A stretch of 64,000 nucleotides of DNA from Giardia intestinalis (Eukaryota): NCBI GenBank assembly GCA_000002435.2, contig CM018790.1, one strand, 5' to 3'. Positions within the stretch are counted from its first letter, which is position 1. Each line of letters opens with the position of its first letter. The notes beneath the pieces are model-generated. The model saw only the letters and a program-made list of their open reading frames with translations, ran no database searches and had not been told where the DNA came from. Position numbers and translations under genes: made by a program. This document shows, piece after piece, positions 14,945-64,000 of the stretch.

Positions 14945-15769
14945 GGTATTTTTTAGGGAATTTTGCCTATGCCTCTTTCGGCTGGCTCTGTGGTAAGATC
15001 GCTCAGCCTAGTGGCAAGCGGGGAGCCACAAGGTAAAGAAAGGTAGGTGCGGGATGCTCTGGTAGCCCTAATGTTGAGGACGGAAGCGTTGCAGGGCTTG
15101 CTTGCAAGAAAGATCGAGTAGCAGCTCTGCTCTAGTGGGACACATGTTATGGCATGCTAAAGGCTGAATTCAATAAACCGATCATCGTGTGTACTGATGG
15201 TGGTTTGTATGTAAGTATATGCAAACTGCGGTTCACTATAGAAGTCAGCGCGTGGAAGCATCTAGAACGCGATCCGATGTTTCAATACGGTTCGCTCCAG
15301 ACTGAATCAATGTCCCCCTTAATCACTGAACGAATTCCATACCGCAGGCGTGCCGTTGCCTCCCAGTTTCTACTGGGTCTTATGCTGTTCACCTTCGGAG
15401 TAAACTCGGAAATGCCATGATCTAGGCAGCTGACTGTCGAAATACCTGAATGAAAGCCCTTGTGTTCTTCGAGCGAGACCGACGCTGCAACACAATGAGA
15501 TGCTTAGTGCGTGTTGTAAGGCTCCACTCTGACAGTAGGAGCTGCTGTGATAAGTACAGACCCTCGGGCAGCTGTCAGGCCTCTAGGTAACAGCGAGCGA
15601 CCAAATGTTGGCGGATGGACATCCGCTGCTGCCTTGTCGACTCCTCGTCGGTATAGGGGAGATGGACCGATCGGGTGACCCATAGGAGCGGCCAGGTCGC
15701 AACGGCGAGTGTACCAATCGTGTGCTTCTCAATCGGTTAAATAATCTCTTTGTTTTGCTATCCAGGGTT

Positions 15770-46500: not shown

Positions 46501-46610
46501 GTTACGGCCCGTGACCAACCCTCGTCTCCGGACATCGCCAAAAATTGAGCGGGAATTTACTCGCGAGATTTGCGGACAGCGCCCGCAGGCGAGGGCCCAG
46601 CGGCACACAC
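43534..46610 (+). mobile_element. GilD/Genie 2-like degenerate retrotransposon, copy C. About 3.08 kb. It starts 8 bp after the flippase stop codon.
   Basis: Its ORF set is identical to A and B (RT fragment 44722–45420). It sits at a constant 19,695-bp offset from copy A. Its right terminus (..gcgagggcccagcggcacaca) is more diverged than the others. Confidence 0.8.
44722..45420 (+). pseudogene. RT fragment of copy C.
   Basis: Identical 232-aa translation with YADD. Confidence 0.75.
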
Positions 46611-49600
46611 TAAAAAACTTGAGTCAGCCGTTGCACCCGCCGCCCCCAGGACAAAGCTTCTGCACGCATGGCCAGCTGCCCTTGTCAGTCCAGCCTACTG
46701 GTCCAATAGTCTGATGACCCTCTGCCCCGCTCTCTGGTGTATGATATCTCACAACTGCTCATGGGAGTAAGCAGCATGAAAGAGGAATTGCATGTGTGGA
46801 CATTGTGCTATGCTCGTCTCAGAGGACCGAGGTGTCTAACTACAGAGCGCTGCACCGAGCCACATGTTCCATTACCCTGCACTGATGGATGCCTTCATCA
46901 CCGTGCTTGTTGCATTTAGGCTGTGCCTGCTCAACAGACTGAACATGCACTGCATCGACCCTATTTGACGTTGCATCCCGCATGACGTCCAATGGTAAAG
47001 TGGACATCGTACTGCCTGAGCTACCTGTTATCAGCGGAGAATGGCACCAGAGACGCTTCTACGTATCCACACAGTCATTATGCCTGCTTCTCCATCAGCT
47101 GTAGCGATAGCTGTATACCCGGAAGGTCCTGCAGAGCGCCCCATTGCCTTTCAAGATGAGACGTCTGCACCTAAAGCTAAAAACAGAAACCCGTGCACCA
47201 GGTGTCACGAGCCTAGTGTGCTGACCGGCCTAGATCACAATGCACCCGTCAAAGGCCTGTGCATACGTTTGGATGCTCACCGCTAGTGGCAGACGGGCCT
47301 GCGAGAAAGCTCGTCTCTGGCCGCGCTCGCCCCATAACACCTAGTCCTTGGCGACATGCTTCGGTGCGGGAGAATGCTAGGTAGACGTGCAGAGGGCCAC
47401 CTGTAGACGGCCATTTCTGGAGGACCGATTCGCATGGAGAGCGTAGGGGTGACCAGCAGATCAGTGAGGTACGACTGGGACTGGAGAGGCTGGCTGCCGG
47501 TCTGGATTGCAGCGGGGGCACCTGTGTGCCTCTCTGGCCCGCGAGTGTGGAAGGGTCTATCTACCGACAGGCCGAAGACCGCATTTTGATTTTATGCGTT
47601 TACAGCAGCACATTTGTTGGGGGCTGTTCTATCGAGAGGCGAGGATGTTCGCTTTCCCCGTATAGGGCGGGGGTCGATTGGATTGGAGAGGTATACTGTG
47701 CAGGCCAGTATCAGTCGACGCGGCTAGATCTGCAGTGCTACGCGGATGGTTACCTCCATCTTCGGCCAAAGGGTTGGTACACGCATTGCGTAGGTTGGAT
47801 TACTCATCACCCAGGGTAGCATGGCTCGCCCTTGTTCTCTGCTTGCCTACCTCGTGCAACCACTGCTGATAGCCTTCCCAGGTCAGCATGCGGATGCCTC
47901 TACGGTCCCGTAAAGGTATGCATCGTGCAGGCGGCCACCACAGGCCGTCCCGTCTACCAAGGAAAAGGGTCAATCGGTTACTGCATGGGGGTCCTCTGTG
48001 CGCCTTGCATAATCCACCAGGTCTTGTGCTCCTCACCACTCCCTCGCAAGCCCCGTCTGGCTCTCCCCGCCGCTGGAGTCCACGCGCATGTCGTTACTGC
48101 CAAGCACTCTGGCCCAATGGGTCACCTAGAGCGTCGGGTTCTTTGCCCTACGCAGTGAGTGTGCTCGACGTAGGAGATGCACAATCAATAGCAGCCTTCT
48201 CGGCTTCTGGCCTGGATAATGCTATTGTTGCTTCTCATCCGATCAGCTGGCACGAGGGCCCAGCTCATGGCCAACAAGCTGAGAAGGGTCGTTCCGGGAG
48301 GTCTTCAAGCACAGCAGTACCTCGCCAACGGGTAGCTAACAGTGACCGTGGCGCGTACCTCCGCCAAGCCACGGCATCCTGGGGCACGAAATGGGGCCCT
48401 GCCATCCTGCGGCCCTGCTGATTCCCCGGACAGCAGGGATCGGAGCAGCCCAGCTAGCGCCTCTGGGTCTCCGCTTGTCCTCGTTGCCTGAGGTGTGCTT
48501 GGCTCCAGAGACTCAGAAGGGCGCTGTACCATGATCGGGCCTGCATGCCTCAGCCAGGCAGGGCTACCCTCTTGGAGACTGCGCGAGGTAGCCACACATC
48601 CCGGGGACCTGTGGGGAACACCGCAGCCCAATGGAACCCTTACCTGTCGAATGCAGGCCGTAATTGCGGGCTCACCGGTGCAGGACTTCTTAGAATAACC
48701 GGTCGACTGTAGAGCCCCCCACTCGGTCCAGATGAGCGACATCACTCTCATCGATGGGCTACATTGCACGCCGGACAGTCCCACATGCGAGCAAGGGTCA
48801 TCCAGCCCGCAGCAATGAGCATTGGTAGATGTCCTTCACAGCAGCCGCTTTCCTATTGAGATTCGCCAGCCACTGAGGCCCAGGCCGGCCTCCTGCAGGA
48901 TCATTGGTAGGATCGTGCCCGATGCATGTCTGTGGCACTCCCCTCAAGATGCGTGCTGCTGGACTTTCGCTTCCTGCACTGGCCTGCGAACATCGAGCCC
49001 TTCTAGCGGGGCCACACGGAGATCACAAGGATATGGCGTCCTCAGAGACTATCCGGCTTCTGAGCCACACACCGGGGCCCACTTCTCGCAGCGGCATCAC
49101 AGAGAGGCGTATAGAGCCATACCACGCCCTCTGCCAGGCGACATGGTGCACGGATCAAGAGGTAGACGCTCGCACCGGTTGGCCCGAAGGCAGCGATTAG
49201 ATGTTGCTCGATGCCCTTATCAGCGGATGGGCGCCCAGCTACCCTGGTACCCACACGAGGCCACGCTGATCATGGGTCTGGTCACTGGCTATCAAACCAG
49301 CACAGTCTCCCTGGATCTCGTCTCTCATGAAGGCAGCCTAACACAGAGAGCCCTGTGTCACTCACACCAACAGGCCAAGGTACCCCGGGCCCGGGTGCTT
49401 CCGATGATAGAGCGGTGGCACCAGAGTGACTCAGGGAGTGATGGGGTCCTCTCCATCAGCTCGGGAGACAGCGCGGTCTGGGCAGTGCTCCCCCTTGGCT
49501 AGGCACGGGAGGACTGACCCGTCTCTGAGTTCCACTTAGCACTCTGTCACGCAATGAAGAACCTTAGTGGCACTTAGTACAAGAGATCAGGGCTATACAC

Positions 49601-49956
49601 ACACCAGATCAGAGCGCCCCGTGAGCCAGTCTCTGCTGATCCACATCTTCTATGGACTCGGTATCTCCTCCAGAGACTGCGAGGATCCGCTTTCGGGTGC
49701 TATCCGTCAGGCAACCGGGCCAGCAGGGGTCGTCTGGGGGGACGCCACAGGGACAGAGAGAGCACTGGCACACGGGGGTCCACAAGGGGTCGATCCGCAC
49801 AGGGAAGGCACAAGGCCCAGCTCTCCGAGGATGTAGAGACACCGGAAGAGGGACTAGCGAGAGGCTGCAGGCACGTGGGTGGTCCCGTGCCTATTCATGG
49901 ACTTTCTGTTTCCCTGCACGGTGGGCTGAGTATCACAGGCCACACGTAGTGGATGC

Positions 49957-49963
49957 GTTTACT
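49957..49963 (-). promoter_or_regulatory. AGTAAAC polyadenylation signal of the VSP gene.
   Basis: The plus strand reads gtttact. On the minus strand it is AGTAAAC, about 20 nt downstream of the CRGKA stop codon. Confidence 0.65.
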
Positions 49964-49982
49964 ACCTAAGTCATATCTAAAT

Positions 49983-52595
49983 CTATGCCTTTCCGCGGCA
50001 GAGGAACCACCAGCAGAGGAAGCCCACAAGACCCCCTACAACAACAATCACAGCGACGGAGATACCGGCTATGGCCCCCGTGCTGAGGCCGCTCTTGTTG
50101 ACGCTTCCACCAGTGCCTGCTTCTGATTCTAAGCATATGACTGAACTGCCAGATGACGACACACATTGCTTGCATCCAGAGATCTTCTCTGAGCACTTCT
50201 TGCATAACCCATCAGTGGTATCGTCACCGTTTTCCTTGTAATACCCAGTGGCACAAGTCTTACACTTATCAGCCGCATCTGCAGTCGAGCACGTAGCACA
50301 AGTAGAATGGCACTCCCCACAGGCCCCACCTTGTGCCTGTAGTCCGTTGGCACATGTCTGACATGTTCCTCCCTGTGCACTACTACAGACCTGCTTACCA
50401 GGCTGTCTATCTGTCTGATAGCAGCCGCCGTCCTTGAGGAAGTAACCCTCATTGCATTGTGTACAGGCCCCATTTGTGATTGTTGCACAGAAGGCTGCTC
50501 GTGAATTGGCCGCACAGTTGCCGTTCAAGGGGGCCTGAGTAGAGGTCTTGCACTTTGAGCAGTATGCAGTTCCTCCTATTTGGGCCCCACATGTCTCACA
50601 GCCAGTGCCATCTGCAGACACTTTGCACGCATCCCCGCAGGCGCCTCCGTTATTAGGATGGCTGTCATCTGTATATGTCAGTTTCTTGCCAGCAGGACAG
50701 GCACTGCACTGATTGTTGGCCGGCCCAACGCACTCAGCACACTCAGGGCTGCATGCCTTACACTTCTTGTCATTATCTCCGTAGTATCCGCTGATGGCTG
50801 TGCAGTCAGGTACGCATTGGTTTGTTGGAGTGAGATAATTGTTATCATTACATTCAGTGCAGGCCTCGTTGTCGGTCTTCGGGTTATCGCAGGCCTTGCA
50901 GTTGGGCGTGTTGCACGCCTTCTCGACGCACTGGCCCCCGTTCAGGACGTAGGCGGGGTCGCACGCCGTGCAGGCCTCGTTGTCGGTCTTCGGGTTATCG
51001 CAGGCCTTGCAGTTGGGCGTGTTGCACTTCCTCTCGACGCACTGGCCCCCGTTCAGGACGTAGGCGGGGTCGCAGTCAGTGCAGGCCTCGTTGTCGGTCT
51101 TCGGGTTATCGCAGGCCTTGCAGTTGGGCGTGTTGCACTTCCTCTCGACGCACTGGCCCCCGTTCAGGACGTAGGCGGGGTCGCAGTCAGTGCAGGCCTC
51201 GTTGTCGGTCTTCGGGTTATCGCAGGCCTTGCAGTTGGGCGTGTTGCACGCCTTCTCGACGCACTGGCCCCCGTTCAGGACGTAGGCGGGGTCGCACGCC
51301 GTGCAGGCCTCGTTGTCGGTCTTCGGGTTATCGCAGGCCTTGCAGTTGGGCGTGTTGCACTTCCTCTCGACGCACTGGCCCCCGTTCAGGACGTAGGCGG
51401 GGTCGCAGTCAGTGCAGGCCTCGTTGTCGGTCTTCGGGTTATCGCAGGCCTTGCAGTTGGGCGTGTTGCACGCCTTCTCGACGCACTGGCCCCCGTTCAG
51501 GACGTAGGCGGGGTCGCACGCCGTGCAGGCCTCGTTGTCGGTCTTCGGGTTATCGCAGGCCTTGCAGTTGGGCGTGTTGCACTTCCTCTCGACGCACTGG
51601 CCCCCGTTCAGGACGTAGGCGGGGTCGCAGTCAGTGCAGGCCTCGTTGTCGGTCTTCGGGTTATCGCAGGCCTTGCAGTTGGGCGTGTTGCACTTCCTCT
51701 CGACGCACTGGCCCCCGTTCAGGACGTAGGCGGGGTCGCAGTCAGTGCAGGCCTCGTTGTCGGTCTTCGGGTTATCGCAGGCCTTGCAGTTGGGCGTGTT
51801 GCACTTCCTCTCGACGCACTGGCCCCCGTTCAGGACGTAGGCGGGGTCGCAGTCAGTGCAGGCCTCGTTGTCGGTCTTCGGGTTATCGCAGGCCTTGCAG
51901 TTGGGCGTGTTGCACGCCTTCTCGACGCACTGGCCCCCGTTCAGGACGTAGGCGGGGTCGCACGCCGTGCAGGCCTCGTTGTCGGTCTTCGGGTTATCGC
52001 AGGCCTTGCAGTTGGGCGTGTTGCACTTCCTCTCGACGCACTGGCCCCCGTTCAGGACGTAGGCGGGGTCGCAGTCAGTGCAGGCCTCGTTGTCGGTCTT
52101 CGGGTTATCGCAGGCCTTGCAGTTGGGCGTGTTGCACGCCTTCTCGACGCACTGGCCCCCGTTCAGGACGTAGGCGGGGTCGCACGCCGTGCAGGCCTCG
52201 TTGTCGGTCTTCGGGTTATCGCAGGCCTTGCAGTTGGGCGTGTTGCACTTCCTCTCGACGCACTGGCCCCCGTTCAGGACGTAGGCGGGGTCGCAGTCAG
52301 TGCAGGCCTCGTTGTCGGTCTTCGGGTTATCGCAGGCCTTGCAGTTGGGCGTGTTGCACTTCCTCTCGACGCACTGGCCCCCGTTCAGGACGTAGGCGGG
52401 GTCGCAGTCAGTGCAGGCCTCGTTGTCGGTCTTCGGGTTATCGCAGGCCTTGCAGTTGGGCGTGTTGCACGGCGCTTCTGGGTCCTTGGTGCACTGCTTC
52501 GTGTCATTGTTGATGGTGTAGCCCGGGAAGCATGTGTCCTTCTCGTTGTACTTGGCCAGCACGGTTGCACAAACTAGGAGAAATCCTACCAACAT
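49983..52595 (-). CDS. Variant-specific surface protein (VSP), cysteine-rich with CXXC motifs and a tandem-repeat core.
   Basis: Start MLVGFLLVCATVLA (signal peptide) at 52595. Dozens of CXXC motifs follow. The transmembrane tail GLVGFLCWWFLCRGKA* is the invariant VSP C-terminus. An AGTAAAC polyA signal lies at 49957–49963 on the minus strand, about 20 nt after the stop. The track ORF extends to an upstream non-signal-peptide start at 52796. Confidence 0.9.
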   Translation of the reverse strand: MLVGFLLVCATVLAKYNEKDTCFPGYTINNDTKQCTKDPEAPCNTPNCKACDNPKTDNEACTDCDPAYVLNGGQCVERKCNTPNCKACDNPKTDNEACTDCDPAYVLNGGQCVERKCNTPNCKACDNPKTDNEACTACDPAYVLNGGQCVEKACNTPNCKACDNPKTDNEACTDCDPAYVLNGGQCVERKCNTPNCKACDNPKTDNEACTACDPAYVLNGGQCVEKACNTPNCKACDNPKTDNEACTDCDPAYVLNGGQCVERKCNTPNCKACDNPKTDNEACTDCDPAYVLNGGQCVERKCNTPNCKACDNPKTDNEACTDCDPAYVLNGGQCVERKCNTPNCKACDNPKTDNEACTACDPAYVLNGGQCVEKACNTPNCKACDNPKTDNEACTDCDPAYVLNGGQCVERKCNTPNCKACDNPKTDNEACTACDPAYVLNGGQCVEKACNTPNCKACDNPKTDNEACTDCDPAYVLNGGQCVERKCNTPNCKACDNPKTDNEACTDCDPAYVLNGGQCVERKCNTPNCKACDNPKTDNEACTACDPAYVLNGGQCVEKACNTPNCKACDNPKTDNEACTECNDNNYLTPTNQCVPDCTAISGYYGDNDKKCKACSPECAECVGPANNQCSACPAGKKLTYTDDSHPNNGGACGDACKVSADGTGCETCGAQIGGTAYCSKCKTSTQAPLNGNCAANSRAAFCATITNGACTQCNEGYFLKDGGCYQTDRQPGKQVCSSAQGGTCQTCANGLQAQGGACGECHSTCATCSTADAADKCKTCATGYYKENGDDTTDGLCKKCSEKISGCKQCVSSSGSSVICLESEAGTGGSVNKSGLSTGAIAGISVAVIVVVGGLVGFLCWWFLCRGKA
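50857..52468. repeat. About 14.3 tandem copies of a 111-bp (37-aa) unit inside the VSP CDS: CNTPNCKACDNPKTDNEACT[D/A]CDPAYVLNGGQCVE[RK/KA].
   Basis: The 111-bp period is visible directly: 'gtaggcgggg' recurs at 51062, 51172, and so on. Two unit types alternate in the order D D A D A D D D A D A D D A, reading N-terminus to C-terminus. Confidence 0.9.
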
Positions 52596-53388
52596 TAGCC
52601 GGAGTACACGTGCCACTGCCCTTCCGTCAGGCTGGTGCATTGGCCGCGAGCAGTGAGAGACAGCCGCTCTTGCTCTCTTGACCAGTTGGACCGGAGAAGA
52701 ACGAGATAGGAGCACGCCCACCGGAGGCCAGTTGATAGTGCAGTTTCCCTGACTTCCATAGGAACAGGATCGGTGAGGACCAGACTCAGATCGCACCTCT
52801 CTTGTGGAGTGATTGTTCGGGGTGCACTCCTGTACATTGCTGTGGGGTATTCGTCGGCTTCCTCTGCGGGGGCTGGTGTCCCGGTAGTAAACGCACCGAA
52901 GAGTCCTGCCCGTGACTTTCTGGGCACCGATTGCGAGGGAGCCCCTGGTGCGTGATGGGTTCTAAAAATGCAGTGAGCACGGGTGATCCTGTAGGGCATG
53001 CAGCCTCAGAAGAGAGCACCGACGTGGCCAGTGCTGAAAGGGCACTAGACCCTGCATGGCCCACGTGGATGAGTGGCGGAGGAGGGCAGAGAACGCGGGC
53101 GAGTGCTGCTAGATGGCCGTGCACACGTGGAATGGCCATGACTGCACAGTCGAGGGAGCTGGCGCAGAGTACTAGTAATGCGCGATGGTCACGAGTGGCC
53201 AGGACAGACAGGGACGCCATGGCATGCAAGGGCGCTCCACAAGGTACGGGACGACGTGTCTGCTGTCATGGACACAAGCTCGAGAAGCGAGGCTGGCAGA
53301 GGCCTGCGCTCTCTCGTAGCCTCTGAGGGTGCGGCCCAATCACTCGTTCAATCCGATCGCTTGGTCTTATTTTTGGAAACAAACTGTC

Positions 53389-56346
53389 ATGGCTGACGGC
53401 GATGACCACGCAGCCAGCTCCCAAACATCGGCCCCCGCCATCCCACAGTTCACCATCAGGGACCTCCACGAGTGGCTGGATAGCGTGCTTAATGAAAGCA
53501 CCATGGGGACAGTCTACTCCCTCGAGGGCTATCCAAACCTCGCCGTGAAGGAGATCCTCCTCGACGGCCTGGGCAAGAGCAACGTGGACGCTATCAAGCT
53601 TGAGCTGGCCACCCTCCCCGACCTCTCCCATCCAGGGGTTCTCAGGCACCATCAAGTAGTCGAAGACGAAAGCTTCATTTACATCGTCATGAATCGCCAC
53701 GACAAGACCCTTGAGCAAGTGTTTATCGACTGCAAGCGGAGGAAGATCCCCGTGTCTGCCGGCGTGGTCCTCTCCATTCTGAGACAGCTCTCCGCCGCCC
53801 TCGCCTACCTCCATGGCCTCAGTGGGGCAAACACTAAAGGCCTCGTCCACCGCGACCTCAGGCCTGCCAATATATTTATCAGCGCAGACGGAGAGCGCTT
53901 CATCATTGCTGACTTCGGCCTCTGCAAGGACGCCCTGAGATGCGGGAGCACCATTGCAGGCACGGCAGTATACATGGCCCCCGAGGCGCTCCTCCGTAAT
54001 GAGGCCAGCCCCGCCTCCGACGTGTGGAGCCTCGGGGTCATCATTTATGAACTAGTAACTCTGAGGAGGCCGGACTTCTTGGGGGGCAAGGAGCCGGCAG
54101 AGGTCTTCATCGATGGGTGGAGGCCCGATCTGAGCGGTGTCACTGATGGCTTCATGCAGAATGTTCTGGAGAGGATATTCGTGCTGGAGCCAGAGAGGAG
54201 GCCGACGGCCAGGGAGCTGTGCAAGATGCTCACTGCGGCTGACATCCCAATTGGTGAGCTGGGGCATCGGTATGTGGCACTAGAAGACAAATGCAGCGCC
54301 TTGGAGGCTGCTTTGAACAGTGCTAATGCTAATATCGTGCTTCTGAAGGACGAGCTCAAGGTCGAGTCGGATAAGGTCACTGCTCTTGAGGCAGCCCTCG
54401 ACGCCAGGTCTGCTGAGATTGCCTCTCTAAAGGGCGCTCTTGAGAGCAGACCAAGTGAGGTCGACGCCCTGGGACAGGAGCCCCGACTTAAGACCACCGG
54501 GATTGACGCTCTTGAAGATCAGTGCAAGGAGTATTCAGCCATGATTAAGGCACTAGAGAATAGATTCACAGAAGTTAGTGGTGGGATGAACACGAGTAGC
54601 CCCCAGAGCAACCTCTCCACGCTGCCTAGACTGATACGAGCTGCATACACGAATGACACAGAGACCGTCCGGGTGCTAATTGAAGAGGGAGTCACCGGCC
54701 AGCGCGACGAGCAGGGGATGACAGCCCTCATGCACGCGGCCCAGCAGGGGCACATTGGTCCTGTCAGGCTGCTTGTTAAGAAGGAAAAGGGTATCAAAGA
54801 TAAAAACGGCTGGACCGCGCTCATGCACGCCGCACATAACGGCCACCCTGAGGCATCTAGGATCCTCACCCCTCACGAGCATGGGCTTCAAGACTTACAT
54901 GGCCATACAGCTCTGATGATCGTCGCACAGCAGAGAAATCTTGAAATGGCCAAGATCCTCCTTGGTCGTGAAAAGGGGATGAAGGACAAGGACGGTAATA
55001 CAGCCTTCATGCACGCCCTCATGAATAAGCACACAGGCATAGCTCTGCTTCTTCGCAAGCATGAGGCACCCTCGTGGACCCCGCTCATGTGCGCGGCCTT
55101 CACTGGAAATGTTACCATGGCGAGGAGGCACCTCCATGAGAGAGACGTGAAGAACAGCGACGGCGAGACTGCGCTGACCATAGCCGCGAGGGCGGGGCAC
55201 AAGGACATCGTGGAGCTCCTCGACCCCACAGATGAGAATGGCGTCACTGCCCTCATGCGAGCTGTTGACAGAAATGATGTAGATACTGTGAAGGCCCTCC
55301 TTCCCCTCCAGGGGGGACAGAAGGCGACGGGGGATGTCGAGATAGGCAAGCTGACTATGTACGGTGGAACGGCGCTGATGAGGGCAGTAGCACATGGCTA
55401 CGCAGAGATAATGGAGATGCTTGTGGAGAAGGAGGGGGGCATGAGAGATAGGAATGGTAAGACGGCCCTTATGATAGCAGCAGAGAAAGGCCACCCAGAG
55501 TGCATTAAGCTACTGGTGAGAAACGTCCGTGAGCGTAATTCCTTGAGCTGGACAAGTCTTATGTATGCTGCTTGCATTGAGGATGCTGATGCAGTTAGGA
55601 GTAGCCTTCAGGAAGCGGGGGTAAAGGATAGTGATGGATGTACGGCTCTCGTGTGGGCTGCAAGAACTGGTCACACAGAATGTGTCAAGCTACTCTTAGA
55701 GAAGGAGGGCGGGATGCAGACAAGTTATGGTTCAACAGCCCTCATGAGTGCAGCAGAGGAAGGCCATGCAGGGGCAGTGGAGGTACTCCTGGAAAAAGAG
55801 GGACGCATGAAGGATAGTGATGGACAGACAGCCCTTATGTATGCAGCACAGAACGGCCACTCAAAATGTGTTAGACTACTAGTAAAGAAGGAGGGAGGCG
55901 TGCAGGATATTTTTGGACGGACCGCCCTCATGAGTGCAGCAGAGGAAGGCCATACAGACTGCCTTGCGCTTTTGCTAGAGAAGGAGGGAGGTATGAGAGA
56001 TGACAATGGCAAGACCGCCCTCATGCTTGCAGCAAGGTATGGTAGCACAGACTGTTTTAAGCTCCTACTAGAAAAGGAAGGAGGTATGAAAAGTAACAAT
56101 GGACAGACAGCTCTTATGGCTGCAGCAAAGGAAGGTCACTCTGCCCACATCGCGCTGCTCTTGGAGAAGGAGGGGGGCATGCAGGATAGTGACGGATGGA
56201 CCGCCCTCATGTGGGCAGTCTCCTGCAGACAGATAGAGTGCGCGAGACTCCTCGCAGAGAAGGAGAAGAACGTAAACAGGAGGAAGCTCTTGGGGATAGT
56301 CAAAAGGAGAGGCAATAGCAAGATGATGGCCCTCCTCTCAGAGTAG
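53389..56346 (+). CDS. NEK-family serine/threonine kinase with coiled-coil and C-terminal ankyrin repeats. Catalytic residues are intact.
   Basis: GTVYSLEGYPNLAVKEI, LVHRDLRPANIFIS, IIADFGLC, AVYMAPE, DVWSLGVIIYEL, then coiled coil (KCSALEAALNSANANIVLLKDELKVESDK..) and more than 12 ankyrin repeats. AGTAAAC at 56351–56357 lies 4 nt after the stop. The start was re-set to MADGDD.. by paralogy with 23042. Confidence 0.9.
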   Translation: MADGDDHAASSQTSAPAIPQFTIRDLHEWLDSVLNESTMGTVYSLEGYPNLAVKEILLDGLGKSNVDAIKLELATLPDLSHPGVLRHHQVVEDESFIYIVMNRHDKTLEQVFIDCKRRKIPVSAGVVLSILRQLSAALAYLHGLSGANTKGLVHRDLRPANIFISADGERFIIADFGLCKDALRCGSTIAGTAVYMAPEALLRNEASPASDVWSLGVIIYELVTLRRPDFLGGKEPAEVFIDGWRPDLSGVTDGFMQNVLERIFVLEPERRPTARELCKMLTAADIPIGELGHRYVALEDKCSALEAALNSANANIVLLKDELKVESDKVTALEAALDARSAEIASLKGALESRPSEVDALGQEPRLKTTGIDALEDQCKEYSAMIKALENRFTEVSGGMNTSSPQSNLSTLPRLIRAAYTNDTETVRVLIEEGVTGQRDEQGMTALMHAAQQGHIGPVRLLVKKEKGIKDKNGWTALMHAAHNGHPEASRILTPHEHGLQDLHGHTALMIVAQQRNLEMAKILLGREKGMKDKDGNTAFMHALMNKHTGIALLLRKHEAPSWTPLMCAAFTGNVTMARRHLHERDVKNSDGETALTIAARAGHKDIVELLDPTDENGVTALMRAVDRNDVDTVKALLPLQGGQKATGDVEIGKLTMYGGTALMRAVAHGYAEIMEMLVEKEGGMRDRNGKTALMIAAEKGHPECIKLLVRNVRERNSLSWTSLMYAACIEDADAVRSSLQEAGVKDSDGCTALVWAARTGHTECVKLLLEKEGGMQTSYGSTALMSAAEEGHAGAVEVLLEKEGRMKDSDGQTALMYAAQNGHSKCVRLLVKKEGGVQDIFGRTALMSAAEEGHTDCLALLLEKEGGMRDDNGKTALMLAARYGSTDCFKLLLEKEGGMKSNNGQTALMAAAKEGHSAHIALLLEKEGGMQDSDGWTALMWAVSCRQIECARLLAEKEKNVNRRKLLGIVKRRGNSKMMALLSE

Positions 56347-56350
56347 CCAG

Positions 56351-56357
56351 AGTAAAC
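56351..56357 (+). promoter_or_regulatory. AGTAAAC polyadenylation signal of the NEK gene.
   Basis: The Giardia consensus is AGTRAAY, placed 0–20 nt after the stop. Here it reads tagccagAGTAAACaac. Confidence 0.7.
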
Positions 56358-56397
56358 AACTACCGCCTCCACATCAGACCTTACACCTCACAGCCCC

Positions 56398-56652
56398 GCC
56401 ACGCAGCAGGACTCCGGGGTCAGCAGCCTCTAGCGCGGGAGCGAACGCGGCTCAGGGAAGTCGGCAAGCCGGCTCCGTAACCTCGGGAAAAGGAGTGGCT
56501 CTGACGGCGCGCCGGGTCAGAACTGGAACGGACGCGGGGATCCCGACTGTTTACTAGAAACACAGCGTCGCGAGGGCCGCACCCGGCGCTGGCGCGACGT
56601 GATTTCTGCCCAGTGCCACGACCGTCACCGTGAAGCGATCCGCCGAAGCCCT

Positions 56653-56704
<52 letters not shown>

Positions 56705-57025
56705 GGGCAATTTCCGACGTGCATGAATGGACCAACGAGGATCCCACTGTCCCGAGCCGCGCCTCCGCGAGCCTCCAGCCTCGGGAACGGGCGAGGGCCG
56801 GCCAGCGGGGCAAGAAGACCCTTTTGAGCTTGACTCCAGCCCGGGCCTGTGGGGCGGGGCGGCCGGCGCAGCGCACAGGGGAGGCCGCGCCCCTGAGACA
56901 CCCTGACGGCCGCCGCCGCCCCGCTCACCCGGTCGCGCGGGGACCCGCCCGGGCGGGGAGTTCGGCTGGGGCGGCGCGCCTGCTACACCGGACCGCAGGC
57001 GTCCCACGGCGGGCTCAGCGAGGAC
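56398..57025 (+). rRNA. Orphan internal fragment (about 630 bp) of large-subunit (28S-type) rRNA, domain IV–V region. Not a complete gene.
   Basis: Universally conserved LSU strings are present: GGGAAGTCGGCAAGCCGGCTCCGTAACCTCGGGAAAAGGAGTGGCTCTGACGG, CCGACTGTTTACTAGAAACACAGC, GTGATTTCTGCCCAGTGC, GGTAAACGGCGGGAGTAACTATGACTCTCTTAAGGTAGCCAAATGCCTCGTC, GCATGAATGGACCAACGAGGATCCCACTGTCCC, GCAAGAAGACCCTTTTGAGCTTGACTC. It ends at ..GCTCAGCGAGGACGG, where retrotransposon sequence begins. Confidence 0.85.
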
Positions 57026-59153
57026 GGAGGCGGTTTACTACGTAATATGCGCGCAAGGCGGTAAGGACATTGGAGGGGAGGCAGCCTCACGACGGAGGGG
57101 AAGGGCCCGCCCGGGGCGCCCAGCCCCCGTGCCCGCGTGGTCTCGCGGCGGGGGCGCGGCCAGGGGGGCCTTCTCCCCAGCTCCAGGGGTATGCTCCTGT
57201 GCGCGGGGGCGCGCGGGTCACGGCCAGGGGGGCCAGGCGCTGCAGGCTGTGTGTTAGTGGATCCGCGGAGAGGGCGGCCTGCGGTGTTAGGGCATAGCGG
57301 CATGCAGACATACAGGCCCGAGGGAGGCGTGCCATGTGAGGGGGAGTGGTAGGGGGGCATCCTGGAGGATCGATGGCGAAGGTGCCGATCCTCCTCCGTG
57401 GCGGCGCAGGAGTCCTGGATGAGACGTGATGGCGTGGGTGCTTGGCCTTTGCTCGAGCGCATGGTGTGGGTGGACCGATTCCCCGCATCCTCCAGGCCCT
57501 GCGGGGGCGGTCTTCAGGCCCAAATTCTGGATTTTGGAAAAAATAAAATCCACCATGAGCGTCGCCCCGGCGCAACCAGCAGGCCCTGGGCCGCGGAAAC
57601 AAAGAGACAAATAGCCCGTGGACCAAGAAGAGTGCAGGCCTGTTTGGGGGGTAGAAGACGACGCGTCGGGCCAGAAACCCAGGGATCCAGGATTCCAGTC
57701 AAAGGCAGGCCTACAGACCGGCCCACTGCACCGCGCACATACGCGAGGCACCATAATGCTGTTGCACTAAAAAGGGAAGCGCGAGCCCAGAGAACCGGCG
57801 AGGAAACAGCTTGGGGGTGGAGGGGTTTGGGGAGCCCAAATTCTGGCCCATCGACACACGGGGTGAGCTGTGGCCGGCCCAAGGGGACAGCGTGGACAGG
57901 TGTGTGCAGTGCCCCATATAAGGATGCACGATGGGGATCGGCCGGGGCCACCGATTCGGGGGACAAGGGAGACGCGTCCGGACTGTCCCCGGGAGTCCGT
58001 GAGAAGGGAGGGTGCGGACCGTGCACCATAGCTAGCCCATCCACACGTGTCGTGCTATTCCAGAATGGTGGCTCACCGGAGGCGTCTGGCCAAGATGGCG
58101 GGGGCAGCGGGGCGGTGGTCCCATACGGCCCAGGAGGCCGACAGAAGGTCACGCCTGAGAGAGCAGACTGACGGCTTAGGAGGTGGTGTGGGGAGGCACG
58201 GGTGATGGAGGAGGCCCCCTAAGGGCGGGTCCAGGCTGATGACGCCAGCTCAGGACAGACCGGCAGAGCGCCGTGGAGCCATATTCTTCTGTGCGTGCCA
58301 GTCCCATCTGTGACAAGCAACCCATGTGGTGCCAGCGCTGGTGGGAGGCATGTGGCCCAGGTATGGAGCGAAACCTGGGGGCCCGGCCGGGACTGTCAAC
58401 AGCCGTCACCGCGACTCAGCGGAGACCGAGCAGGAGAGGTAGAGAGGAGCAGGGGAGAATGGGCCAGGCAAACACAGGCGCATGAGGGATGGCCCATTGG
58501 AGGGCAAGCACCTGGAGGCCAGGGCCAGAGTGACCAGGTTCCCTGTACCGGGGCGCCCAGAGTGGGTACATGAGGGGGGGCAGTGGGGAAGCGATGCACC
58601 CGAGGGCTCAGTAGCACATAGCACCCGGCCATCCTCTCCAGGGGGCACCGGGGCGCTGCAGCAGAGGATGGCCCGAGCCAGGGCTGTGCCGCCCCGGACC
58701 GGAGGCGGCCACTGGCGGGCAGTTCCATGGGGGGATCAGCACGGCGCGGTGCGATGGTACGAATGACACACGGGGCTAGCCTCTTCCCCCAGCACCAGCT
58801 CGCCAGACTCAGCACCCAAGGACCGCCGCTGCCCGGGAGGACAGACAGACGAACACCGGGCTGCGGCGTGGGCAGATGACGAGTCCCATCGAGGAAGTGC
58901 CCAAACGTAGGCAGGGCGGGTGTCTGGCCATCCAGGGGGGCGTCCGGCCTGGCCCGGCCTGGTCGAGTGTGTATGGCATCGCGGCTAGGCATCTATCGCA
59001 CCGTGTCTGGACGTGATGCACACCCGAATGATAGGGGCAAGAGGCCTCGGGTGCGAGCGAGGAGTACCAGGGGAGACAGCTCGGCACGCAGGCCCAGGGG
59101 TCCGTTCGCGCTGTGGGGCAGCCGACAGCGGGCAGGGTGCCCAAGCATGACCA

Positions 59154-62100
59154 CTAGCGCCCCGTGTCGATGCGTTTGAAGGGGTAGAAGCCATCAGGGG
59201 CATGCGGCTTGGGAGGACCGACGCGCTTGAAGAAGGACGGCAGGGCCTTGTGCACCGGCTCGGGTGCTCCTGCATCGTCGGGGCTGTCGTCATCCAGTGG
59301 AGGCGGGGAGGGGGCCCTTGAGCACATGAAGGGGTCTGGGCGTTCGTTTGCATCCGGCTGTGCGGGGTGATCGGTGCCCCAGGTGATCGAGGAGGAGACC
59401 TCAGCAGGACCCCAGGGAGGAGGGACTGCCGCATCAGGATGCTGGCTGAGATCGGCCATGATCTCTACGGAGGGCGACGTGCCAGGGCTCCACATGGCAG
59501 GGGTGAGGGGAGTAGGAGGAGTAGCCCGAGCCTCGTTGGGAGCCGGTTCCGGCAGGGATACTGCAGGGGCGGGGCGGTGCACCGGCCTCTCCACTCGCAG
59601 CCCAGCGTACAGGAGGGCCGACAGCCTGTAGTGCCAGAGGATGACCTGCGCCGCCTCCTGCATGAAGCGCGCAAGGTCCACGCCGGCGAACGCGAGTCCG
59701 GCCGCAGACAGGTGGTGCAGGACGCCGTCAGCACCGACCACGACGGGGAGGATGTGGGCCGCCCGCCCCTGGAGCACGAGGGGGCGATACTTGGCGGCCT
59801 TCAGGGCATAGGACCGCTCCAGCCTCCACGGGACAGTGACCACCAAGTCCCCGAAGCCCCCACCGATGACAAGGTCAGGCTGGAGGTGATCCACTGGGAT
59901 CGTGGGATTGCGCACAACAGACCCAGCGCGACCGCGGGAGCACGCGAGCAGGGCGTCCAGAATCTTGTCGTGCCGCGCCACGTGAATCCCGTTAATGGCC
60001 TTGCACACCAGATGGTGCCTGGGAAGGAAGGGCTGCTTGCAGTGGCAGCACGTGCCCATCGGCCGGCCCCGCTGGTACCTCCCCGCCAAGCAGTCCCCTA
60101 TGAACAGGACCTGCGTGTTGTCCAGGGGTGCGCAGCCCAGCAATGCGAGCGGCAGGAAGGATCGGAGCGCGGCCGTGTCCTGCAGGCGCTTCTTCCTCAG
60201 CTCGCGGAAGACGCCCGCCTTCATGTCCTGGCGCTGCCTGTGCATCTCGTCGTAGTAGTGATGGGGCAGCACCAGTCCGAGGCCGTACTTCGCGCGGGGC
60301 GTCAGAGCAAGGGTCTTCGCAAGGGGTTCGGGGATCTCCAGAAGGGTCGCGACCTCCTCCACTATCTGCGCATCGACGTCGGCATAGGGGGACGGGCCCG
60401 GGTAGTCGTCAACAAGGGGTCCATAGTTAACTGCAGGGACGACGCAGGCAGACAGGAGCCTGAGGCGGTCGTGGAGTGAGAGACCCGAAGCACGGAGGAC
60501 GGCGAGATGCTCGTGGAGCCGGCGGGCCGATGTCTGCGCGAGGTTGAAGGAGGAGTGCTTGAGCACGCGGGTGCCCATGAAGGAGATCGCCCCGGCCTGG
60601 GTCGAGGAGCACTTCGAGAGCTCGACCGTGAGCCCTATGCGGGAGAGGGCAGACTGCGCGTCACTCTTCACGGTATCTATGGGAATCGCCTCCTCTGACG
60701 CAATGACGAGGTCGTCGGCGTATGCAACGACCTTGTACTGGCCGAGGTACGTCTCCACCGGCCAGACAAGGCTCTGGCAGAACATCGCCATGGACAGCGG
60801 GTCCCCCTGTGGCACGCCCGCTGGGACCGCGGGGAGGTCCGAGGAGTGCCGAGCCGCGAGGAACGACTCAATGTACGCGACGGTCGGCTGGACCACCCCT
60901 GCCCGGCGGAGCGCAAAGAGGATGACGGAATGCGGGACGCTGTTGAAGGCATTCCGCACATCCACCGTGAGCAGGTGGTGTGTCCTCTTCAGCTCCTCGG
61001 CCGCGCGGATCGCCTTCATCTGGGCGAGGTGCTCAAAGGCCAGCTGCCACGCCGGGAGCTTGCGGAGCGCGGGAGTCCGACGCAGGAGCAAGCGGTGGAA
61101 GGCGACCAGAAGCGTCTCCTGCACTGCGATAGGGCGCCATCGGCCGCCAGACTTGGGCAGAAGCTTCAGCCTGAACTCGCACAGGGGCTGGAGCTGGGCC
61201 CAGTTCCTGCTGGAGAAGAGGGTCGTCAGGACAGAGGTGAAGAGCTCCGCAGCCCCGGCGGCCCCACAAAGGTGCAGGAGGTGAGGCTTCCCCAGCCCAG
61301 AGGGTCCGGCCGCGACAGGCCTCATCGCCTGCAGCTCCTTCAGCAGCGCCTTGGCCGTTATCTTGGGCGACGGGCCGAGCACGTGATGGACGGGGGGCAG
61401 AGAGACAGGCATGGGGCGCGGGTGGAGCTCATGGACAATCGCTTCCCGCTCCTTGCCCTGGGGCTCGGGGACCCTGGCGGCAGAGGACGTCTCGCTCAAC
61501 AGCGCCTGCCATGCCCGGCCGAGCAGCCCCTTCCGGAGAAGCGACTGCGCCGGGGGGAGCCGTCCAGAGCCCTCCATGCGGCGGCACGTCGAGAGGAAGC
61601 GCGCTAGGGCCTCTACAGGAGGAAGGCGCCCCGCCATCTCTGTGAATACGTCAGTGAGGAGGCGAAGCAGCTCAGGGGACGGGCTGCCACTAGGCACCCC
61701 GATGCGCTCGGGGACTGTGGCGTCGAGCGGGAGGTAGTGGCCGAGCCTGGCGATATGGGCCTTCAGCCCCCTCTCCGTTTTGTATCGGGCCCGGCACATG
61801 CTGCATGCATACGGGAACACAGGGTCCGGCGTTGGCGAGGGAGAGGGCTCGGCGGCTGCAGGTGGAGGGGCAGACCCCGACAGCGGAGAAGGGCTGCGCG
61901 ACGGAGAAGGTGAACCGGGAGGCGGATGGTGCATCCCGATGTGGACATCGATCGCCGCAGAGTCAGGCAGCACCTCTCCGCAGCGCTCGCAGACAGTCGT
62001 ACGGCCCCCAGGAGCAGGCAGGTCTGCGCCCCGGGCCTCCTGCTCGTCCGTGATGGACGGGGAGTTGTCGTGGCCCAGGTCGTATGGGAGGCCGTCGTCG

Positions 62101-62483
62101 GGAATCGGGAGGGGCTCCTGGCCACAGGGCAGAAGGTCGTTCGACAGGCAGGGAGGAGAGGCGTCCCGGGCCACCGAGGCCCCGGAGCCCTGTAAGCCAT
62201 GGACAGGAGAAGACTCATTGGGAGAGTTGTCCGTGGCGGAACGGCTGTTGCCAGGCCCAGGCTGGGGGGATGGGGGCCCGTGGGAGCCGCAGAGGGGCTC
62301 GCAAGAGGAAGGCCGGGCCATGGCGGTCGTCGAGGCATCGTTGCCGTCACCCAGCGTCATAGGATCGGGAGTGCCCCTAGGTAGGGGCCTGTGGGAGTCG
62401 GTTGGAGCGTGGTTGGGAGGCTCTGGGCCTGAGGAAGCCCCGATCTCCGTGGTTCCCGAAGGCGCGGAAAGGGCGGAACGCAT
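59154..62483 (-). CDS. Retrotransposon ORF encoding reverse transcriptase, a CCHC zinc finger, and a restriction-enzyme-like (PD-(D/E)xK) endonuclease. 1109 aa.
   Basis: RT motifs FNSVPH, GVPQGDPLSMAMF, VAYADDLVIASEE. C-terminal CHCKQPF..HHLVCKAINGIHVARHDKILD, then QPDLVIGGGFGDLVVTVPW...KAAKY, the R2/NeSL/Genie-type endonuclease. The ATG at 62483 lies 2 nt from the A15 tail of the upstream copy. Confidence 0.85.
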   Translation of the reverse strand: MRSALSAPSGTTEIGASSGPEPPNHAPTDSHRPLPRGTPDPMTLGDGNDASTTAMARPSSCEPLCGSHGPPSPQPGPGNSRSATDNSPNESSPVHGLQGSGASVARDASPPCLSNDLLPCGQEPLPIPDDGLPYDLGHDNSPSITDEQEARGADLPAPGGRTTVCERCGEVLPDSAAIDVHIGMHHPPPGSPSPSRSPSPLSGSAPPPAAAEPSPSPTPDPVFPYACSMCRARYKTERGLKAHIARLGHYLPLDATVPERIGVPSGSPSPELLRLLTDVFTEMAGRLPPVEALARFLSTCRRMEGSGRLPPAQSLLRKGLLGRAWQALLSETSSAARVPEPQGKEREAIVHELHPRPMPVSLPPVHHVLGPSPKITAKALLKELQAMRPVAAGPSGLGKPHLLHLCGAAGAAELFTSVLTTLFSSRNWAQLQPLCEFRLKLLPKSGGRWRPIAVQETLLVAFHRLLLRRTPALRKLPAWQLAFEHLAQMKAIRAAEELKRTHHLLTVDVRNAFNSVPHSVILFALRRAGVVQPTVAYIESFLAARHSSDLPAVPAGVPQGDPLSMAMFCQSLVWPVETYLGQYKVVAYADDLVIASEEAIPIDTVKSDAQSALSRIGLTVELSKCSSTQAGAISFMGTRVLKHSSFNLAQTSARRLHEHLAVLRASGLSLHDRLRLLSACVVPAVNYGPLVDDYPGPSPYADVDAQIVEEVATLLEIPEPLAKTLALTPRAKYGLGLVLPHHYYDEMHRQRQDMKAGVFRELRKKRLQDTAALRSFLPLALLGCAPLDNTQVLFIGDCLAGRYQRGRPMGTCCHCKQPFLPRHHLVCKAINGIHVARHDKILDALLACSRGRAGSVVRNPTIPVDHLQPDLVIGGGFGDLVVTVPWRLERSYALKAAKYRPLVLQGRAAHILPVVVGADGVLHHLSAAGLAFAGVDLARFMQEAAQVILWHYRLSALLYAGLRVERPVHRPAPAVSLPEPAPNEARATPPTPLTPAMWSPGTSPSVEIMADLSQHPDAAVPPPWGPAEVSSSITWGTDHPAQPDANERPDPFMCSRAPSPPPLDDDSPDDAGAPEPVHKALPSFFKRVGPPKPHAPDGFYPFKRIDTGR

Positions 62484-62485
62484 GG

Positions 62486-62500
62486 TTTTTTTTTTTTTTT
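62486..62500 (-). repeat. A15 poly(A) tail (T15 on the plus strand) ending the upstream retrotransposon copy.
   Basis: The plus strand reads catgg-T15-acagaggcggtttactacg. On the minus strand, AGTAAAC (62510–62516) sits 9 nt upstream of the tail. Confidence 0.85.
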
Positions 62501-64000
62501 ACAGAGGCGGTTTACTACGTAATATGCGCGCAAGGCGGTAAGGACATTGGAGGGGAGGCAGCCTCACGACGGAGGGGAAGGGCCCGCCCGGGGCGCCCAG
62601 CCCCCGTGCCCGCGTGGTCTCGCGGCGGGGGCGCGGCCAGGGGGGCCTTCTCCCCAGCTCCAGGGGTATGCTCCTGTGCGCGGGGGCGCGCGGGTCACGG
62701 CCAGGGGGGCCAGGCGCTGCAGGCTGTGTGTTAGTGGATCCGCGGAGAGGGCGGCCTGCGGTGTTAGGGCATAGCGGCATGCAGACATACAGGCCCGAGG
62801 GAGGCGTGCCATGTGAGGGGGAGTGGTAGGGGGGCATCCTGGAGGATCGATGGCGAAGGTGCCGATCCTCCTCCGTGGCGGCGCAGGAGTCCTGGATGAG
62901 ACGTGATGGCGTGGGTGCTTGGCCTTTGCTCGAGCGCATGGTGTGGGTGGACCGATTCCCCGCATCCTCCAGGCCCTGCGGGGGCGGTCTTCAGGCCCAA
63001 ATTCTGGATTTTGGAAAAAATAAAATCCACCATGAGCGTCGCCCCGGCGCAACCAGCAGGCCCTGGGCCGCGGAAACAAAGAGACAAATAGCCCGTGGAC
63101 CAAGAAGAGTGCAGGCCTGTTTGGGGGTAGAAGACGACGCGTCGGGCCAGAAACCCAGGGATCCAGGATTCCAGTCAAAGGCAGGCCTACAGACCGGCCC
63201 ACTGCACCGCGCACATACGCGAGGCACCATAATGCTGTTGCACTAAAAAGGGAAGCGCGAGCCCAGAGAACCGGCGAGGAAACAGCTTGGGGGTGGAGGG
63301 GTTTGGGGAGCCCAAATTCTGGCCCATCGACACACGGGGTGAGCTGTGGCCGGCCCAAGGGGACAGCGTGGACAGGTGTGTGCAGTGCCCCATATAAGGA
63401 TGCACGATGGGGATCGGCCGGGGCCACCGATTCGGGGGACAAGGGAGACGCGTCCGGACTGTCCCCGGGAGTCCGTGAGAAGGGAGGGTGCGGACCGTGC
63501 ACCATAGCTAGCCCATCCACACGTGTCGTGCTATTCCAGAATGGTGGCTCACCGGAGGCGTCTGGCCAAGATGGCGGGGGCAGCGGGGCGGTGGTCCCAT
63601 ACGGCCCAGGAGGCCGACAGAAGGTCACGCCTGAGAGAGCAGACTGACGGCTTAGGAGGTGGTGTGGGGAGGCACGGGTGATGGAGGAGGCCCCCTAAGG
63701 GCGGGTCCAGGCTGATGACGCCAGCTCAGGACAGACCGGCAGAGCGCCGTGGAGCCATATTCTTCTGTGCGTGCCAGTCCCATCTGTGACAAGCAACCCA
63801 TGTGGTGCCAGCGCTGGTGGGAGGCATGTGGCCCAGGTATGGAGCGAAACCTGGGGGCCCGGCCGGGACTGTCAACAGCCGTCACCGCGACTCAGCGGAG
63901 ACCGAGCAGGAGAGGTAGAGAGGAGCAGGGGAGAATGGGCCAGGCAAACACAGGCGCATGAGGGATGGCCCATTGGAGGGCAAGCACCTGGAGGCCAGGG
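62501..64000 (-). mobile_element. 3' UTR, partial and running off the window, of the next GilM/GilT-type copy in the head-to-tail array.
   Basis: It is collinear and near-identical with 57028–58530. Track ORFs recur with identical translations (for example 56983–57462 versus 62499–62939, and 58176–58409 versus 63652–63885). Differences are confined to homopolymer-length changes, such as G7 versus G5 near 57645/63120. Confidence 0.8.

Follow-up and report, generated by a model that had tools for sequence, protein, structure and literature searches.

In a 64,000-nucleotide (nt) stretch of Giardia intestinalis DNA from contig CM018790.1, referred to here as the window, two tandem copies of the telomere-associated non-LTR (lacking long terminal repeats) retrotransposon GilM meet head to tail on the minus strand, and the distal copy's poly(A) tail ends two nucleotides before the start codon of the proximal one. 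The polyadenylation signal patch and the tail of one copy probably act together as the minimal core promoter of the next. GilM itself, its arrays, its long 3' untranslated region (UTR) and its parallel with the Drosophila element HeT-A were already known. The present analysis adds a comparison of 11 junctions across Giardia lineages, an argument from the absence of sequence tags that would place the start of transcription in the tail, and a conservation map of the 3' UTR; the reading of signal plus tail as a putative core promoter was also derived here.

The head-to-tail junction and its counterparts in other lineages

Features at the junction, in the 5' to 3' direction of the minus strand:

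62501-64000, minus strand: distal GilM copy, last 1.5 kb of its 3' UTR (99.93% match to 57024-58524; the window end cuts the copy)
62510-62526, minus strand: AT-rich patch CATATTACGTAGTAAAC spanning the poly(A) signal and suggested, from its composition and the promoter rule of PMC1885649, to serve also as a TATA-like element near -30
62511-62516, minus strand: AGTAAA polyadenylation signal of the distal copy, 28-33 nt 5' of the ATG
62510-62501, minus strand: CCGCCTCTGT, the 10 nt between AGTAAA and A15
62486-62500, minus strand: A15, the distal (upstream) copy's untemplated poly(A) tail and proposed initiator (Inr)-like element for the proximal copy
62484-62485, minus strand: CC, the sole element-encoded nucleotides before the start codon (2-nt leader)
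62483-62481, minus strand: ATG of the proximal-copy open reading frame (ORF)

Read off the minus strand from 62516 to 62481, the sequence agreed with the A15-CC-ATG order reported in a first-pass annotation of the window, including a start codon 2 nt after the tail that opens a 1109-amino-acid ORF (59154-62483, minus strand). That annotation placed the signal 9 nt before the tail, which is correct only for the heptamer AGTAAAC; from the hexamer AGTAAA the distance is 10 nt. It also spoke of an array, a term that goes too far, since the window contains one complete copy (57024-62485), the 1.5-kb end of a second (62486-64000) and a single junction. The direct repeats are spaced 5476/5477 bp apart, and the 1498 nt common to both copies (62501-64000 versus 57024-58524) are 99.93% identical, with one indel. 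The GilM unit has a G+C content of 66.5%, and besides the A15 no A or T homopolymer of at least 10 nt occurs anywhere in the window's 64,000 bases. At this site two tandem GilM copies are joined head to tail.

The comparison set comprised 11 junctions from 10 sources, namely the window and 10 further junctions in nine loci. Two of the loci were contigs of Giardia P15 / assemblage E (L001 and L002), one was a contig end of another G. duodenalis assembly (L003), and six were metagenome or Sequence Read Archive (SRA) contigs (L004, L005 and L016-L019). The proteins of the compared loci were 48-63% identical to that of GilM. A single anatomy was shared by all 11 junctions, consisting of the hexamer (A/T)GTAAA, 8-10 nt, a pure A-run of 7-15 residues, a 2-3-nt spacer and ATG. 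The hexamer, which read AGTAAA everywhere except at one junction with TGTAAA, started 24-33 nt 5' of the ATG in every case, and the spacer was CC (8/11), CCC (2/11) or CCA (1/11). The ATG opened an ORF of 1086-1160 amino acids in 10/11 cases, the exception being the decayed copy of L003. The layout recurs at 10 further junctions in nine independent loci and is therefore real, not a chance arrangement.

The A-run measured 15 nt in the window, 15 and 9 nt at two junctions within one L001 array, and 12, 7, 8, 12, 12, 15, 11 and 10 nt at the others. It was absent at the 3' end of the innermost copies in the window and in L001 (at ~11790). Because its length varies between junctions and it is missing where a copy was joined differently, the A-run is a variable, untemplated tail, and the leader encoded by the element is 2-3 nt long. 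The layout has thus been conserved over divergent Giardia lineages while the length of the tail has varied. Two earlier proposals are upheld by these data: that the upstream copy is truly polyadenylated, as seen from tails of 7-15 residues among homologous junctions (15 versus 9 inside one array) that are missing from the innermost copies of two arrays, and that the element has essentially no 5' UTR, as seen from the CC or CCC before the ATG at 10/11 junctions across lineages so far apart in protein sequence. No copy at any of the 11 junctions began with a duplicated stretch of the 3' end, that is, with a tag of the HeT-A kind.

The single CCA spacer belongs to a P15 junction (L001 183-185, A15-CCA-ATG) and is either a true variant or a homopolymer error in the assembly. 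In L003, the junction copy has an early stop 35 codons past the junction ATG, and decayed reverse transcriptase (RT)-related pieces and a VSP gene (1-1400 and 13292-15719) lie beside the tandem copies at the contig end. Ten additional loci (L006-L015), obtained from a metagenome scan with the conserved 3'-UTR 20-mer CCGCCGCGAGACCACGCGGG, were rejected as chance matches; they are GC-rich bacterial contigs in which the similarity ends at the 20-mer.

Signal patch and tail as a putative core promoter

A Giardia core promoter pairs a degenerate AT-rich element at the start site with a second, likewise degenerate and AT-rich, ~30 bp upstream; the nearest ~50 bp carries the most weight, ~50-60 bp is needed, distal elements are generally not known, and transcription starts from any AT-rich patch, often bidirectionally (PMC1885649). 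Transcription start site sequencing (TSS-seq) showed an AT-rich consensus from -5 to +5 and leaders mostly shorter than 20 nt, down to 1 nt (PMC3792122). When an AT-rich patch was defined as a 16-mer with at least 12 A/T, the GilM unit contained only four kinds: the tail, the signal patch CATATTACGTAGTAAAC, and two patches 480-590 nt before the 3' end. None fell in the 3.3-kb GilM ORF and at most two in the ORFs of other lineages, and an equivalent AT-rich signal patch was present in every lineage compared. Relative to the ATG, the tail occupies positions -17 to -3 and the signal patch -43 to -27. By sequence, an A15 within ~20 nt of the ATG (A7-15 over all junctions) corresponds to an Inr-like element, in keeping with the earlier suggestion that the A-run supplies the AT-rich initiator context used by Giardia genes (PMC1885649, PMC3792122). 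The patch CATATTACGTAGTAAAC corresponds to a TATA-like element ~30 bp upstream, a match that is confounded with the poly(A) signal.

The junction therefore resembles a Giardia core promoter in its two rightly placed AT-rich elements, its leader of a few nucleotides and its GC-rich surroundings. It is unlike ordinary Giardia promoters in that the elements are 3'-processing features of another transcription unit, and in that one of them is untemplated, having been added to RNA and then reverse-transcribed.

The proximal copy starts with CC-ATG and so lacks both a 5' UTR and space for its own promoter; plausibly, each ORF relies for its sense transcription on the copy before it. In this reading the AT-rich signal patch would serve as the TATA-like element and the tail as the initiator, and transcription would most likely begin at CC or in the A-run's 3' part. 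Some 50 nt at the end of the upstream copy, together with the tail, would suffice, the 2.1-kb UTR would not be needed, and a copy would be expressed only with another copy distal to it. The proposed start site follows from the missing tags: a retrotransposed copy begins where its RNA began, so a start upstream of the tail would leave UTR sequence and oligo(A) at the 5' end of the new copy, and no tag of upstream 3' sequence is seen at 11/11 junctions. A start in the tail or at CC would explain why reverse-transcribed copies begin exactly there and free of tags, and any A residues in the leader would be indistinguishable from the tail of the neighbour.

Several considerations weigh against a promoter at this site. 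The role is deduced from sequence rules. Formation of the 3' end alone fully explains the conservation of the AGTAAA patch and of the tail, which is not independent evidence for a promoter. The 99.9% identity of neighbouring copies lets arrays grow by unequal recombination, in which case the absence of tags is less informative on the start site. Finally, an endonuclease is present in the element, so that addition of copies to free chromosome ends is uncertain. With regard to precedent, a promoter role for the GilM/GilT tail was not stated in the full-text literature searched, which excluded the original descriptions of the elements. The original description of GilM reportedly discusses the provision of a promoter by the upstream copy.

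Among the alternatives, the one that fares best, and which we still regard as unlikely, is that the abutment of tail and ATG is a by-product of copy joining or unequal recombination, with transcription arising incidentally from AT-rich patches and no selected promoter role. The 99.93% identity of the copies is compatible with recombinational homogenisation, signal and tail are required for 3'-end formation anyway, and Giardia initiates at loosely defined AT-rich patches genome-wide (PMC1885649). Tail lengths that differ even inside one array nevertheless favour separate insertion events, and the ORFs are intact in 10/11 junction copies. Moreover, the 5' end of the transcript sets the 5' end of a retrotransposed copy, so that conservation of the CC-ATG start, at protein identities of 48-63% between lineages, implies that transcription starts at the junction.

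A stronger form of the signal-plus-tail promoter, which we put forward tentatively and as possible rather than probable, is that retrotransposition itself makes the promoter: the signal patch and tail of a new copy would constitute the complete TATA-like plus Inr promoter of its older neighbour. If so, GilM-type elements would be expressed only inside arrays, the strength of the promoter would be set by the length of the tail (7-15 A), and the A/T tract would also fire into the upstream 3' UTR, giving antisense RNA for small RNAs. Sense and antisense RNAs and small RNAs have been reported from Giardia telomeric retroposons.

The remaining two AT-rich patches lie at 57528-57556 and 57597-57613, some 480-590 nt short of the unit's 3' end, and are repeated at 63005-63033 and 63074-63090. 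The patch at 57528-57556 (GGATTTTATTTTTTCCAAAATCC) forms a short inverted repeat, rich in T on the sense strand and hence in A on the antisense strand, and comparable T-rich patches were seen 300-1000 nt before the 3' end in L001, L002, L004, L005, L017 and L019. Because both sense and antisense RNAs are reported from these elements, the T-rich UTR patches are candidate antisense start sites.

The long 3' UTR and its conserved end

Features of the 3' UTR:

57024-59153, minus strand: 2130-nt noncoding 3' UTR of the complete (innermost) copy
57034-57258, minus strand: GC-rich terminal conserved block of the 3' UTR (equivalent in the distal copy, 62511-62735)

The length of ~2.1 kb first given for the 3' UTR is accurate, as the complete copy has 2130 nt from 59153 down to 57024. 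In BLASTN comparisons of the GilM unit with other lineages, the RT core showed ~67% identity and the last ~200-225 nt of the UTR 80-87%, and neither the C-terminal portion of the ORF nor the UTR's first ~1.9 kb gave a match. The terminal block, with counterparts at L001 5770-5975, L002 5953-6117 and L004 1-182, is better conserved between lineages at the nucleotide level than the RT core. Searches with tblastn of all UTR reading frames confined the similarity to this block, in every frame and on both strands, which marks it as nucleotide and not coding conservation. The length of the UTR is maintained among lineages (2.1 kb to 2.7 kb or more) and its sequence is not. An ORF of 354 amino acids at 62564-63628 was considered as a second gene within the UTR and was rejected; its similarity lies only in the terminal block, and such ORFs are expected at 66% G+C.

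The terminal block is situated 60-190 nt before the tail, upstream of the Giardia core-promoter zone, and the 40-50 nt adjoining the tail are conserved just in their AT-richer composition around AGTAAA. A hairpin in the block, CCGCG..CGCGG, has compensatory counterparts in L016 (CCGCA..TGCGG) and L019 (CCACA..TGTGG); the remaining predicted stems are invariant, and the folding energy of the terminal 220 nt was no better than that of shuffles (z = 0.39). The terminal ~200-225 nt may, with low confidence, be an RNA element recognised by the RT for target-primed reverse transcription, which is more likely than a promoter. It counts against this assignment that the case for RNA structure is weak, given two compensatory positions in two related sequences and the fold energy just described.

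The promoter of the downstream copy was first proposed to lie in the 3' UTR of the upstream copy, as in HeT-A, which would also have accounted for the retention of so long a UTR. Head-to-tail arrays and unusually long 3' UTRs are indeed common to GilM and the Drosophila telomeric elements (PMC5537684), the length of the UTR is preserved in all lineages despite the loss of sequence, and a block of ~200 nt is conserved at its 3' end. We nevertheless consider a promoter of this type quite improbable. A start upstream of the tail should tag every copy with UTR sequence and oligo(A), and 0/11 junctions are tagged. Some 1.9 kb of the UTR is unconserved, without DNA- or protein-level similarity between lineages, and the block that is conserved has a GC-rich sequence and a position upstream of the core-promoter zone, whereas Giardia promoters are AT-rich, need just ~50-60 bp and generally have no known distal elements (PMC1885649). 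The mechanism first proposed thus finds partial support in a narrower form, restricted to the tail and signal patch, and none with respect to the likeness to HeT-A and TART and to the long UTR, which is left unexplained by a promoter role.

HeT-A is said, in work attributed to Danilevskaya et al. 1997 and Traverse et al. 2010, to start transcription upstream of the oligo(A), so that its copies are 5'-tagged with 3'-end sequence. It has a real 5' UTR and a promoter of some hundred nucleotides in its 3' UTR, and encodes neither RT nor endonuclease; TART uses its own terminal repeats. GilM is unlike HeT-A in its 2-nt leader, the absence of tags (0/11), the proposed start inside the tail, and its own RT and endonuclease. 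The two are alike in their head-to-tail arrays, with 3' ends towards the centromere, and in their unusually long 3' UTRs (PMC5537684); in both, moreover, the promoter of the downstream copy is proposed to come from the 3' end of the upstream neighbour. The orientation with poly(A) ends facing the centromere was also found in the window, where the innermost, tail-less 3' end adjoins the gene-containing side and the 5' ends face the window end, which we infer to be the telomere side.

The element, its flanks and its relation to R2

GilM and GilT (Genie 1), Giardia's pair of telomere-associated non-LTR retrotransposons, were reportedly described by Arkhipova & Morrison in 2001 and Burke et al. 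in 2002. The element in the window is GilM because its period, the identity of its ORF, its head-to-tail copies and its long 3' UTR all agree. It has a tandem unit of ~5.47 kb, a single RT/endonuclease ORF, and a Giardia polyadenylation signal plus a poly(A) tail; for the WB reference genome the published length of the GilM unit is 5,474 bp (PMC7000408). GilM/GilT head-to-tail arrays and their unusually long 3' UTRs have already been likened to Drosophila telomeric elements (PMC5537684, PMC10999387). Structurally, nothing set the element of the window apart from the published one: both have the RT ORF, a long 3' UTR and copies that follow one another head to tail in a single orientation (PMC5537684). 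GilM arrays are subtelomeric, and the array in the window is near ribosomal DNA (rDNA) and a VSP gene. The first-pass annotation did not recognise the described element.

Features of the coding region:

59154-62483, minus strand: single GilM ORF, 1109 amino acids, stop codon included
61737-61991, minus strand: two C2H2-type zinc-finger motifs, amino acids 165-185 and 227-249 (Pfam zf-C2H2_4, below cut-off)
60567-61157, minus strand: reverse transcriptase domain, amino acids 443-639 (Pfam RVT_1, E = 3.8e-21)
59787-60050, minus strand: CCHC and restriction-like endonuclease motifs (invariant columns in a 12-sequence alignment)

The ORF product matches P0001, annotated as 'putative Reverse transcriptase/endonuclease [Giardia duodenalis]', at 100% identity. 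No contig matched the window ORF or P0001 in searches for their exact sequences, which hence added no GilM junctions from the same strain. In the alignment, the zinc-finger residues C165, C168, H181 and H185, and C227, C230, H243 and H249, were invariant in 12 homologues. The CCHC motif is formed by C812, C815, H824 and C827, and the endonuclease motif by R837-H838, P869-D870, D879 and K895/K898. No profile or PDB match covered this region (59787-60050), and the C-terminal restriction-like endonuclease is a putative assignment made by motif alone. The nearest solved structures were R2 retrotransposon proteins, which matched over the RT domain only.

Features on the centromere-proximal side of the array:

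49983-52640, minus strand: VSP gene (Pfam VSP, E = 2e-81)
53389-56346, plus strand: NEK-type kinase with many ankyrin repeats (repeats at 55351-56236)
56438-57028, plus strand: large subunit (LSU) rRNA gene fragment, truncated at both ends, centromere-proximal flank (Rfam RF02543, 341.8 bits for 56438-56796; homology to 57028)
57024-57028, no strand assigned: junction of the innermost copy with rDNA (no poly(A) tail; ACGGA/ACAGA microhomology)

The VSP gene contains 14.6 tandem copies of a 111-nt (37-amino-acid) unit at 96% identity (50854-52470). The NEK-type kinase ends 5 nt before an AGTAAA and ~90 nt from the rRNA fragment; no other ordinary gene separates it from the rDNA/GilM array. The flank thus includes, in order from the array, the truncated LSU rRNA gene, the NEK kinase and the VSP gene; at the other side the window stops inside the second copy, and no (TAGGG)n occurs within it. 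Homology to rRNA reaches 57028 (…GCUCAGCGAGGACGGA), the Rfam consensus ending in …ACAGA, and the 3' end of the element, TCTGT, reads TCCGT at the rDNA junction, a microhomology of four of five positions. This suggests that reverse transcription of the innermost copy may have been primed by a broken or nicked rDNA end that paired just before the tail. The GC skew of the plus strand, which runs away from the gene side, was positive throughout the array (0.10-0.20 over 56000-64000), and the sense strand of GilM is accordingly C-rich (38% C). This skew agrees with the published assignment of GilM/GilT G-quadruplex motifs to the strand that forms the G-rich overhang at telomeres (PMC10088271).

GilM and R2 are alike in several respects: an RT that is the closest among solved structures, a C-terminal CCHC/PD..D..K endonuclease motif, the lack of a promoter of their own, an association with rRNA genes, and a conserved end of the 3' UTR as a possible RT binding site. 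R2 is inserted in the sense orientation inside 28S genes, is co-transcribed with rRNA without a promoter of its own, has its 5' end freed by a hepatitis delta virus (HDV)-like ribozyme and carries no poly(A) tail. GilM, unlike R2, is antisense to the rRNA fragment, polyadenylated and arranged in arrays, with no ribozyme found by Rfam at E up to 5.

The R2 proteins being its closest solved relatives and the array adjoining rDNA, GilM might instead be co-transcribed from an outside promoter, on the telomere side or in a distal copy, its units being released by poly(A)-site cleavage or by an R2-like 5' ribozyme; self-cleavage of Genie-1 double-stranded RNA has been reported in vitro (PMC1950533). 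An Rfam scan of 44000-64000 at the gathering score gave LSU rRNA only and no HDV-like ribozyme, and a scan of 62150-62800 at E up to 5, which covers described families only, gave nothing relevant either at the junction or within the element's first 330 nt; a divergent, undescribed ribozyme could escape both. Located on the other strand and on the array's 3' side, the rRNA fragment is unable to drive transcription in the sense direction, and RNA 3' of a poly(A) cleavage site would lack a cap, which together make co-transcription a poor prospect.

Should one copy's signal patch and tail indeed form the promoter for its neighbour, GilM would represent a highly economical example of 'promoting in tandem', in which reverse transcription turns an RNA-processing signal and an untemplated tail into a DNA promoter. 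The expression of a telomere-associated element would then be tied to its membership of an array, in a lineage remote from Drosophila, and the junction would offer a simple source for the sense, antisense and small RNAs reported from the telomeric retroposons of Giardia.

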